A stretch of 64,000 nucleotides of DNA from Malacoraja senta (Eukaryota). A program made the position numbers and the translations under genes. The notes beneath the pieces were generated by a model. It had not been told where the DNA came from, did no database searches, and saw nothing but the letters and a program-made list of their open reading frames with translations. The stretch covers positions 12,960,001-13,024,000 of the forward strand of contig CM075990.1 in the NCBI GenBank assembly GCA_038087875.1, written 5' to 3'. Every line of letters starts with the position of its first letter. Within the stretch, counting starts at the first letter, position 1. Shown here piece after piece: positions 24,205 to 52,529 of this stretch.

Positions 24205-24250
24205 CCTCATCGAAGGCCTGATGCTGATCCCATGTCCGGATGTAATCATC
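24205..24250 (-). CDS. SPOCK2: SPOCK2-like 46-nt coding exon (DDYIRTWDQHQAFDE + G)
   Basis: ttttcttctcttctgtag|GATGATTACATCCGGACATGGGATCAGCATCAGGCCTTCGATGAGG|gtgagt. Resembles SPOCK2 DDYIKSWEDNQQGDE. Ends in phase 1, matching the next exon. Not present in the ORF track. Confidence 0.92.
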
Positions 24251-24839
24251 CTACAGAAGAGAAGAAAACTACTATAACACAAACAAACAAAATCATCATC
24301 GTTTAAACAGAACGTCGCTCCTCAAGTTCCCACCTGGAGCTCTGAAAGGATGAAAGATGGGATGGGATGAGAGCATTAGGTCTCAGCAATAATGAGTTAT
24401 TTTTGGACTGTTGTTATGTGGAGGTTTGCAGGCGGCTGCCCTGTCTATTCATGGAGTTAGTTATAAAATTAATTTCCCCTGACTCGTGCCAATAAAGCAC
24501 TGACAATGACTCTGCGTCTTGCGCTGTCTCTTGAACATCCTGATATGCTGCAATTATCTGAATAACTTTCTACCCATTTCATGTGAACACTGAAACAGCT
24601 CAAAAATAGGTTTTGTTTAAGAAGGTGCTGGAAAATCGAATGCTGGAAAATGCTGGTGCAGATGCTGGAAAATCGAAGGTAGACAAAAATGCTGGAGAAA
24701 CTCAGCGGGTGCGGCAGCATCTATGGAGCGAAGGAAATAGGCAACGTTTTGGGTCGAGACCCTTCTTCAGAAATAGGAGTAGGCTCAAAAATAGGCTCAA
24801 AAATAGGAGTAGGAAGAAAGACGTGGGTACATCTCAAAT

Positions 24840-33230: not shown

Positions 33231-33302
33231 TTTATAATAAACATCAATGAGTCAATGGTAACCCCAAATTCAACTATGTAGCAAAATAAAACTGCTACTA
33301 AC

Positions 33303-33311
33303 CTCCACTTC
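33303..33311 (-). CDS. SPOCK2: SPOCK2-like 9-nt microexon (GAAGTGGAG = EVE)
   Basis: Minus strand reads ...gttgctcatcag|GAAGTGGAG|gttagt, with a long pyrimidine tract and CACTAAC/TACTAAT upstream. It supplies the EVE found between NRFRD and DDY in SPOCK2, and is phase 0/0. Confidence 0.88.
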
Positions 33312-36300
33312 CTGATGAGCAACCCGAGATGGAGAGAGAGAGAGCACGGGAAAGAAAAATGGAAAAAAATGCAATTAGTATGTTAGTGTGAAATAAATTG
33401 ACACTAAACCAAACACCGTATCAGTAATCCATTCAATGCAAACCAGGACCAGAGCCCAATCTCATCAGAAATTATCCCTTTAAAGCACGAAGCCCACACT
33501 TGTGCCACTTGAGAGTGAAGTGCCCATGAGAGTGGAGGACCAAACTGCAGCCTGACCTTCAACAGGTCAAGGTCTAGACTTGGCTCTGCAGCAAGCAATC
33601 CTCCCAGCAGTGGACACACGAGCACAGGCCACCATTAAACAACACCCTTTTGCCGAGGAGGTGCCTGGACCACATGAGAGGAGACCATCCACTCCTCTGT
33701 CAAGGACGCGAGACTGTACCGTGCTGCAGCTGGTCGAGCTGCCGCCTCACAGCAATAGTGACCCCGGTTCAATCCTGACCTCCGCTGCCGTCTGTACAGA
33801 ATTGGTTAAGTTCTCGCTGTGACAGCATGGGCTTCCCCTGGGTGTTCCAGACTCCTCCCACTTCTCACATATGTGCAGGTTGGTGGATTAACCGGCTGAA
33901 GTGTGCATGTGCCTGGCAGAGTCTGGAGGGATGTCGGAGAGAATGAAACTATGATTTGCATGAAGGGGTGCTGGCTGGCTGGTATGGATTAGATGGGGGA
34001 ATGGCCTGCCTCCCTGACTGTGTGTGTGACTAGAACAAGGAGCCGGGCAGATGAGTAGCTCTCTCGCCTTCAGTCAGGAGCCCTGTGGTGGCAAGTTCAG
34101 GGCCTGCAGTAGCTGGCCAGGGTTGGTTTAATAGACGGGGGGAACGGAACAAAATAAGGTAAAGTTTCAACGAGACAATAATGATTTCATCGGTCTGCAT
34201 GTGGTAAAAAAATATAACAATGTCATCCATACAAAAAAAAAGACACATAGTTTGCTGTGGGTGGAATTTGTCCTCTGGAATTACATTTAAGAAATCTATT
34301 TAATTCGATTCATGTGAATCAGACTACATGCCATCATCATGCTTGTTACCAGGGCCTCGATCAGAATATGAATCAGGAGGCCATTCAGTCCCTACTGCTA
34401 GCCCTTCTCCACCATTCAATTCTATCCCAACTAATCCACTAATGGCAAAAACCTACCTACTCACTCTTCAGTGCCCCAGCAATCCCAGGAAACCTTTTAG
34501 GGAGAGAATCCATCTCTTCCTGGCTTCATTCTGAAGTAGGTTAGATCTAATATTGCGATGGCTCTTCAAGTTAGTTTAGTTTACTATTGTCACATGTACT
34601 GAGGTACAGTGAAAAAGCTTTTTTTAATGTTGCGTGCTATCCAGTCAGTGAGTAGGCCATTCTGCCCCTCATACCTGTCCCGCCATTTACTTTGAAGCAG
34701 ATCATGACTCCTCCTAATCAGGACTTGATAATCTTGACAATTATAGTCACTTCCTTATGCAGCTTCAGGTTCTCTGGGTCCGCAAACCCCCCGCATGAGA
34801 GAACAACCTTCCTCATTTCACACTCGAGGTGCCCAGACCATTAAAAATAAATGCATCTCCTTCCACAACAGAAGGCTGGAGTGTTCCCGCCTGATGTGGC
34901 TTGATGTCACTGCTCTGTGCATCGGCAGGGAGCCACAAGAAATAGACTTCAGAAATTAATCTTTGATGAAGAAGCCAGGTCTCGTTCTGTTTTAAACTAG
35001 AGTTGCTTTCACCTTGAGCTGGGAACCATACAATCAAGCAGAGCGAGCGTTCCTCTTGAGCATAACCAAGGTCAAGCAGATCTTAAATTATTAAAATAGA
35101 AACGCTGACGAAATCGCCAATAAACTGACCATTAAAGTAATGGTTGAACAGCAGCCTCCAACCATAAAAAGAGCGATGGTTATTTCATTTATGTCTTATC
35201 GGTCTGATAATTGCCATTGTCCAACTTTGAACTCTCACAGGAGTTTAACTAGTGGTGATAAAAGGAACTGCAGAGGCTGGAATCTTGAGCACAACACAAA
35301 GTGTTGGAGGAACTCAGTGGTCAGGCTGCATCTGCGGAGGGAATGGACAGGTGACGTTTCGGGACGGGACACTTCTTCTGATTGATTGACTGACTAGGAT
35401 CTTGACCACCCGTCTGAAGAAGATCCCTCAAGCCGAACATCGCCTGTTCACTCCCTCCACAGATGCTGCCTGATCCACTGAGTTTCTCCACCACTTTGTT
35501 TCATTTCTTCTCACTTCTTGAGGGTCACCATTGCACGGACAATCAAGTCCACAAAAAGTAGCCTAACTGACCACTCCTCTGCTTATTTATTCTAGGTTCT
35601 AGCTGTGGCCAGAATGGCTGCAGTGATTGCCCAAAGCTGAAGGCATTGCACCTTACAGTGACTCATTGGATGTGGTGTGCATTGAGATATCGAGTAATGT
35701 GTGCCTATGACATTTAACACTGGTCATTCGACTTAGAACTGTCAAGAGGTGGAATAATGTCCTGTTTAATTTCTCAAGGGAATGAGCAACAAGTATCTTA
35801 TTTTGTCTTAAAAAATTGATTCTCCCTTAAATTACTAGGGTCGTTTCTCAAACTAAAAAAACGTGGAAACATTCAGCAGGTCAGGCAGCATCTGCGGAAG
35901 GAGAAATAGTTCAATGGTTAAATAGTCTGAGACCCTTCATCATCAACCTGAAATGTTAACTTTGTTTCTCTTTCCACAGATGCTGTCTGATCTGCTGAGT
36001 GTTTCCAGCATTGTTGGTTTTATTTCAGATTTCCAGTATTTAAAACAAAACCATTCTTTCCCCAATAGGTTTGGTCAACAGTAACAAAGTGTGGTGTCAC
36101 CAAGAATTGAAGGGAGATTTCACACTCTGGACATTCTTTGGCTCAGTTTCATCCACTGGTTGTGGAGGAATAGCTCACAGGGGCTCGACAAAGAGAAGGC
36201 ACGTCGAAAGTTAAAGGGAATTTGAAGATTCTGATGAGACCAACTTCCACACTTTGAGAGAAATGGCAATTCCGCCCAGGATTACACAAATGTGAATCCC

Positions 36301-52316: not shown

Positions 52317-52463
52317 GTCTCGGAATCGGTTCCAGTTTCTGATCTGCTGGCTGTACGGGGAGACACTTGCCAGCCATTCCTCATCCTCCAAGAAATTCCC
52401 CTTCTTGCCCCCTTTCTCCGGACTCTCCTTGTCCTCCACCTCCACCTCCGCCTCCGCCTCCGC

Positions 52464-52498
<35 letters not shown>

Positions 52499-52529
52499 GG
52501 GTCAGCAGCAAGTTTACTGCCCGCAACAT
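52317..52529 (-). CDS. SPOCK2: Testican-2 (SPOCK2-like) first coding exon: signal peptide and N-terminal testican region, 71 codons
   Basis: Translates MLRAVNLLLTPLLLLLLLLLLAAEAEAEVEVEDKESPEKGGKKGNFLEDEEWLASVSPYSQQIRNWNRFRD, which resembles the SPOCK2 motif GNFMEDEQWLSSISQYSGKIKHWNRFRD as I recall it. ATG has A at -3. Phase-0 donor GTGAGT at 52316-52311. Confidence 0.93.

Follow-up and report, generated by a model that had tools for sequence, protein, structure and literature searches.

Testicans carry a known microexon: the 9-nt EVE exon, and the class to which it belongs, already appear in RefSeq models and in VastDB-derived tables. The closest described counterpart of the exon considered here is the zebrafish spock2 event DreEX0074881, which is 9 nt long, is classified as MIC_Neural, and is listed with a neural dPSI of 71.62 and an srrm3/4-mutant dPSI of −46.1, the lowest among three comparisons (PMC12626424). 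The table gives no peptide, and we infer that the event encodes EVE from its length, its gene, and a pair of Danio proteins of 419 and 422 residues; the zebrafish spock2 proteins P0045 and P0068 differ by EVE. Unlike the zebrafish event, the human SPOCK2 orthologue HsaEX0061496 is listed without neural regulation (NO_REG, neural dPSI of 0.05; PMC12626424), so that orthology is no guarantee of regulation.

Exons at the same protein site in the paralogues are neural and SRRM3/4 dependent (DreEX0074887 and HsaEX0061500 in spock3; MmuEX0044774 in mouse Spock1). DreEX0074887 is listed with a neural dPSI of 85.37 and an eMIC-mutant dPSI of −68.26, with a human value of 63.34 (PMC12626424), and at 5 days the eyes of srrm3 mutants include it 62 points less (PMC9303857); the 9-nt MmuEX0044774 is down by 16.29 points in the Srrm4 knockout (PMC4387716). 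A 9-bp microexon of human SPOCK3 has been reported as skipped in pancreatic stellate cells by a paper that cites Hartmann 2013 for mouse (PMC5122892), and deletion of the zebrafish spock3 microexon failed via cryptic splicing (PMC12626424). A literature search found no paper with both SPOCK2 and a microexon in its main text, and the word "spock" does not occur in the 8 supplementary files of PMC7821500 or in 12 of the 13 that accompany PMC12626420. The cartilaginous-fish literature that was sampled mentions neither microexons nor SPOCK, and a partial literature search found no chondrichthyan tissue study of the SPOCK2 EVE exon.

The window analyzed here is a 64,000-nt stretch of the genome of the skate Malacoraja senta, and all positions below refer to it unless another contig is named. 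Judged by phylogeny and exon identity, its gene is the SPOCK2 (testican-2) orthologue, as originally proposed, and not SPOCK1 or SPOCK3. In a tree of 27 proteins and 411 columns, it groups with the testican-2 proteins of Leucoraja and Rhinoraja (support of 0.99) inside a chondrichthyan SPOCK2 clade (support of 1.0), and its EC exon is 91 to 93% identical to SPOCK2 versus 52 to 53% to SPOCK3 and SPOCK1. The first coding exon is 97% identical over 39 residues to that of Amblyraja radiata XP_032868439.1. All regions of the proteins P0003 and P0004 map to exons in the window or in the neighboring genome stretches L042 and L043, which hold the later exons beyond the left end of the window. Kazal/follistatin, SPARC calcium-binding, and thyroglobulin domains and an acidic tail were found, on the basis of a PF10591 match at L010 and a Pfam scan of the shark relative P0252.

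The gene lies on the minus strand. Its first coding exon (52317 to 52529) contains the ATG and the signal peptide, ends in NRFRD, and is followed by the donor GTGAGT; the 46-nt DDY exon lies at 24205 to 24250, and a 115-nt exon (ALDPTKDPC..., 2068 to 2182) starts the follistatin-like region. In the signal peptide and the N terminus, positions 52500 to 52431 of the first coding exon encode leucines from a CTG repeat and AEAEAEVEVE from a GAGGCG/GAGGTG run; in Amblyraja these runs are shorter. The microexon lies between the NRFRD exon and the DDY exon, in frame with both and separated from them by introns of 19,005 nt upstream and 9,052 nt downstream, in agreement with the 19 and 9 kb originally given, and the first four coding exons are free of stop codons whether or not the 9 nt are included. 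The zebrafish and human SPOCK2 exons share with this one the gene, the length of 9 nt, and the position after a long first coding intron; the downstream intron of zebrafish spock2 is 356 nt, a different architecture from that seen here. The zebrafish spock3 event also differs, in that its listed length is 6 nt and a 9-nt alternative acceptor is given for it.

The splice signals were confirmed base for base as CAG|GAAGTGGAG|GTTAGT on the minus strand. The exon itself (33303 to 33311) encodes Glu-Val-Glu in phase 0-0. Its 5' splice site (33297 to 33302) matches the donor consensus at seven of nine positions including the exon end, as a simple match count rather than a MaxEnt score, and its 3' splice site (33312 to 33314) is preceded by a 90-nt AG-free zone, the nearest upstream AG being at −94. 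The UGC that had been noted 8 to 10 nt before the exon is found at −10 to −8 (33319 to 33321) and is likely an SRRM3/4 (eMIC) element by comparison with described SRRM3/4 targets (bioRxiv 2024.09.17.613571); two further TGC triplets are at −35 and −62. Upstream lies a 52-nt, 83% pyrimidine tract (33322 to 33373), set back from the AG, and then the tandem branch-point/QKI-type motifs ACUAAC at −76 and ACUAAU at −68 (33374 to 33388), in the form of CACTAAC at 33388 to 33382 and TACTAAT at 33380 to 33374. The original prediction gave the tandem motifs at these coordinates and put the tract at about 45 nt. The same prediction did not name a (UC)n run at −32 to −21 (33332 to 33343), with four overlapping UCUCUC starts from −32 to −26, which would form the upstream half of a UCUCUC..UGC enhancer.

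This arrangement can be set against what is described for the class. Microexons range from 3 to 27 nt (PMC12626424), and targets of SRRM3/4 are described as having a UCUCUC..UGC enhancer and a strong branch point and pyrimidine tract that are set back from the exon (bioRxiv 2024.09.17.613571). The 9-nt length falls within that range, a UCUCUC[N1-50]UGC arrangement is present between the branch point and the AG (UCUCUC at −32 to −26, UGC at −10), and the set-back branch motifs at −76 and −68 are joined by a pyrimidine tract and a good donor. Predicted RNA structure around the exon is unremarkable (z of −1.06; 29 of 200 shuffles fold equally well). The genome also encodes candidate regulators: SRRM_C has two strong matches, which lie on C6 and C4 (E values of 1.6e-13 and 1.5e-11). 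Two weaker SRRM_C matches on C2 (L072, 146.93 Mb; L073, 145.85 Mb) resemble each other and lie just over the Pfam cutoff; they are possibly repeat-derived or decayed copies. A STAR_dimer exon is present as well, which we take to be that of QKI.

Individually, several of these signals are common. Genome-wide, the core pattern occurs at chance level (38 matches versus 45 for a reversed control), and a UGC at −20 to −5 accompanies 5,695 of 21,684 YAG sites (26%), so that neither proves anything by itself. The chance-level pattern, together with the fact that most batoid gene models lack EVE, is what could be said for regarding the site as a relic or coincidence that is left unspliced in M. senta, a reading that we consider very improbable. 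The 28-kb SPOCK2 intron contains 1,249 candidates of the form YAG-(3-27 nt)-GT, and the site is the sole one that codes for EVE, no second copy of the microexon having been found there; it has the best acceptor in that intron, and the intron is exactly the right one. In combination the signals are informative: the site is also the only one of the 1,249 to pass five filters (donor, pyrimidine, AG-free zone, UGC, and branch motif), whose thresholds were chosen by the analyst after the EVE site had been seen. The first four filters were passed by none of the control candidates in the next intron (0/1,137) or on the opposite strand (0/1,227 and 0/1,027), and by 4 of 8,563 in a 199-kb stretch on the upstream side of the DDY exon of SPOCK3. 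Of these four, one is the SPOCK3 EVE exon and three are probably noise, so the four filters are imperfectly specific. In the 30 of 37 other genome pattern matches that were examined, the pyrimidine fraction was at most 0.61, compared with 0.84 here. The site further lies in a repeat-free island (33257 to 33717) of a repeat-rich intron, and the close skate relative A. radiata has EVE in its model. For the last exon and the 3' UTR, 15 presumed RNA contig sets gave shares of 0.05 to 0.12, with one full match of unspecified type; of 16 such runs, four compared with exon 1 and four others compared with the DDY exon yielded no contig, which counts neither for nor against splicing. We conclude that the EVE 9-mer is almost certainly a real cassette exon.

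Two observations concern the rest of the downstream intron (33302 to 24251). In a comparison with 394 kb of other loci, 50% of it matches sequence that is repeated there, and a repeat starts about 46 nt past the microexon donor. In addition, an 8-nt AG/GT-bounded site, AGCTCCAG, lies at 24341 to 24334 on the minus strand, upstream of the DDY exon by 83 nt. It has a CTAAT motif and a pyrimidine tract and lacks a nearby UGC. We set it aside: its inclusion would shift the frame and lead to a stop at codon 101 or 104, and sites of this type occur at background rate, with three similar ones in the next intron. It is probably cryptic, but it could be a poison exon.

The exon was predicted to be conserved back to cartilaginous fish, and annotations of Amblyraja, sharks, and chimaera bear this out. 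The RefSeq testican-2 of A. radiata (XP_032868439.1) reads RFRD-EVE-DDY, and X1/X2 pairs with and without EVE are annotated in Carcharodon, Scyliorhinus canicula, Chiloscyllium plagiosum, and Callorhinchus; the RFRD-EVE-DDY annotations of these groups are computational models. Among the chondrichthyans listed, to which one protein cluster contributed 15 of its 18 members, EVE appears in the testican-2 models of one batoid genus out of eight and of 6 out of 13 species of sharks and chimaera. The expectation that automated annotation would miss the exon thus fits seven of the eight batoid genera listed but not RefSeq, which has it for A. radiata and several sharks. Across 121 testican-2 proteins, 35 have EVE, 74 lack it, 9 have another insert, and 3 are not scoreable; seven of the nine other inserts have VS as their first residues, which is how the donor GTGAGT translates, and look like aligner run-through. 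All nine testican-2 proteins of this set that are found only in Logan have EVE, and their contigs are shorter than 4 kb and hence spliced. Two bacterial 51-residue proteins (P0397 and P0398) inside a carp testican-2 cluster are a clustering artifact.

EVE is also found outside SPOCK2. Among 120 SPOCK1 and SPOCK3 proteins, 17 have EVE, 3 have EAE, 39 have neither, 3 have another insert, and 58 are not scoreable. In M. senta itself, a SPOCK3 EVE microexon, GAGGTTGAG, is located at C1:275804706 to 275804714 on the plus strand (L050:8706 to 8714). It precedes the DDY exon of that gene by 122 nt, and near its acceptor UGC occurs at −14, −10, and −5. The first coding exon of SPOCK3 and the exons of SPOCK1 were not found in the assembly, though they are present in other skates, and the SPOCK3 microexon is therefore placed by its neighbor exon only. 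From this copy and the EVE-containing SPOCK1 and SPOCK3 proteins, the EVE exon is likely to predate the vertebrate duplications. In the distant, invertebrate-like homologues that were inspected, the NRFRD-DDY motif is entirely absent. Two divergent testicans, P0453 and P0451, form a separate branch within the vertebrate-type SPOCKs. The first retains FHD-EVE-DDSF, and the two could represent a gene of jawless fish or else a fourth paralogue.

Considering its splice signals, we hypothesize that the EVE exon is an alternatively spliced SPOCK2 microexon that is probably switched on by SRRM3/4 mainly in neurons. The default state would be skipping, owing to the very small size of the exon and to a branch point and pyrimidine tract that are far from the AG. 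With help from the UCUCUC run, SRRM3/4 would then act through the UGC at −10 to recruit the early spliceosome and bring about inclusion in neurons. By analogy with zebrafish spock2 and the paralogous exons, we likewise expect that inclusion in M. senta is neural and SRRM3/4 dependent. The original claim of conserved neural regulation accordingly holds for the zebrafish orthologue and the paralogues, and likely here, but not for human HsaEX0061496. Its proposal that insensitivity to mutation of the UGC would refute regulation was too strict, since high SRRM4 levels can override loss of the UGC, which is described as neither necessary nor tied to sensitivity (bioRxiv 2024.09.17.613571).

The human exon provides the model for another reading, in which the skate exon is real but broadly included, independent of SRRM3/4, and free of neural bias. 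Beyond the near-zero human neural dPSI, it draws on the human TICN2 reference protein, which contains EVE, and on protein clusters: EVE occurs in 23 of 29 scoreable members of three mammal-led clusters (absent in 2; 16 of 45 not scoreable), while two teleost clusters give 9 of 27; these counts are biased by representative grouping and annotation method. We infer from the reference protein and the mammalian clusters that inclusion of the human exon is ubiquitous and not rare. Broad inclusion would also suit the skate exon, given its good donor, its long tract of pyrimidines, and the perfect match of both branch motifs. However, the absence of EVE from the models of seven of eight batoid genera and 7 of 13 shark and chimaera species listed is unlike a constitutive exon, and eMIC dependence has been seen somewhere in all three paralogues. 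We therefore regard broad inclusion as unlikely, and SRRM3/4-driven neuronal inclusion remains our preferred reading.

The tandem ACUAAY motifs raise the possibility of a second gate, in which QKI would occupy them and block SF1. A precedent is RAI14 intron 10, where QKI binds dual ACUAAC motifs, blocks SF1, and represses exon 11 (PMC13004596). If QKI were the main gate, the EVE exon would be blocked in glia and other QKI-rich cells and included where QKI is low, which is compatible with the SRRM3/4 model. The two motifs here, 8 nt apart, resemble the RAI14 pair, 9 nt apart, in the branch region (PMC13004596), and such an arrangement is rare: a tandem ACTAAY within 15 nt accompanies 9 of 21,684 YAG sites and 1 of 171 acceptor-like sites. 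The STAR_dimer exon in the genome adds to this case. Against it, the second motif here is ACUAAU whereas both are ACUAAC in RAI14, and the RAI14 pair is nearer the AG, at −43/−34 versus −76/−68 (PMC13004596); the available portion of that source does not present the RAI14 exon as an SRRM3/4 microexon. Further, the SPOCK3 microexon of the same genome, unlike that of SPOCK2, has no ACUAA within 100 nt upstream. The pair is therefore not shared across the family and may be just a strong branch point. We consider QKI as the main gate improbable, slightly more so than broad inclusion, and continue to favor SRRM3/4 as the switch.

As to what the exon does, EVE splits the motif W-N-x-F-R-D/D-D-Y, in which every named residue is invariant across 75 aligned testicans. 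The testican N-terminal domain is disordered by SAXS (PMC7763218), and residues 33 to 84 of testican-3/N-Tes, inside which the EVE site aligns, are credited with MT1-MMP inhibition (review PMC11487499). In AlphaFold2 models of a shark testican-2 with and without EVE, residues 1 to 78 have a pLDDT below 50, which agrees with the SAXS result, and with a pTM of 0.29 the models cannot show an effect of EVE; the best stretch of each of 33 PDB matches falls outside the testican N-terminal domain. The three inserted residues, two of them acidic, would shift two arginines away from the DDY tyrosine and would tune binding of the N-terminal segment rather than its folding. An effect on partner binding is thus a tentative suggestion, to which we give somewhat less than even chances. 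The eleven residues around the tyrosine include five acidic and one basic with EVE and four acidic and two basic without it. Tyrosine sulfation favors sites with several acidic residues and one basic residue at most. From the charge count and this rule, we hypothesize that EVE could switch sulfation of the DDY tyrosine; the term "sulfotyrosine" was not found in the portion of the literature searched.

For gene-model repair, the exon matters in that it is missing from most of the batoid annotations listed. For the history of the family, the skate serves as an outgroup for the ancestral state, as the exon is neural in zebrafish spock2 and not in human SPOCK2, and the skate signature together with the paralogue data point to neural control that is old and was lost on the human line. 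A more speculative extension, which we consider doubtful, is that the skate retains the ancestral double gate of a testican switch older than the duplications, with SRRM3/4 turning the exon on in neurons and QKI turning it off in glia, that mammalian SPOCK2 became constitutive, and that EVE, acting through charge, licenses sulfation at DDY. If that were true, neurons would make a chemically different matrix proteoglycan.
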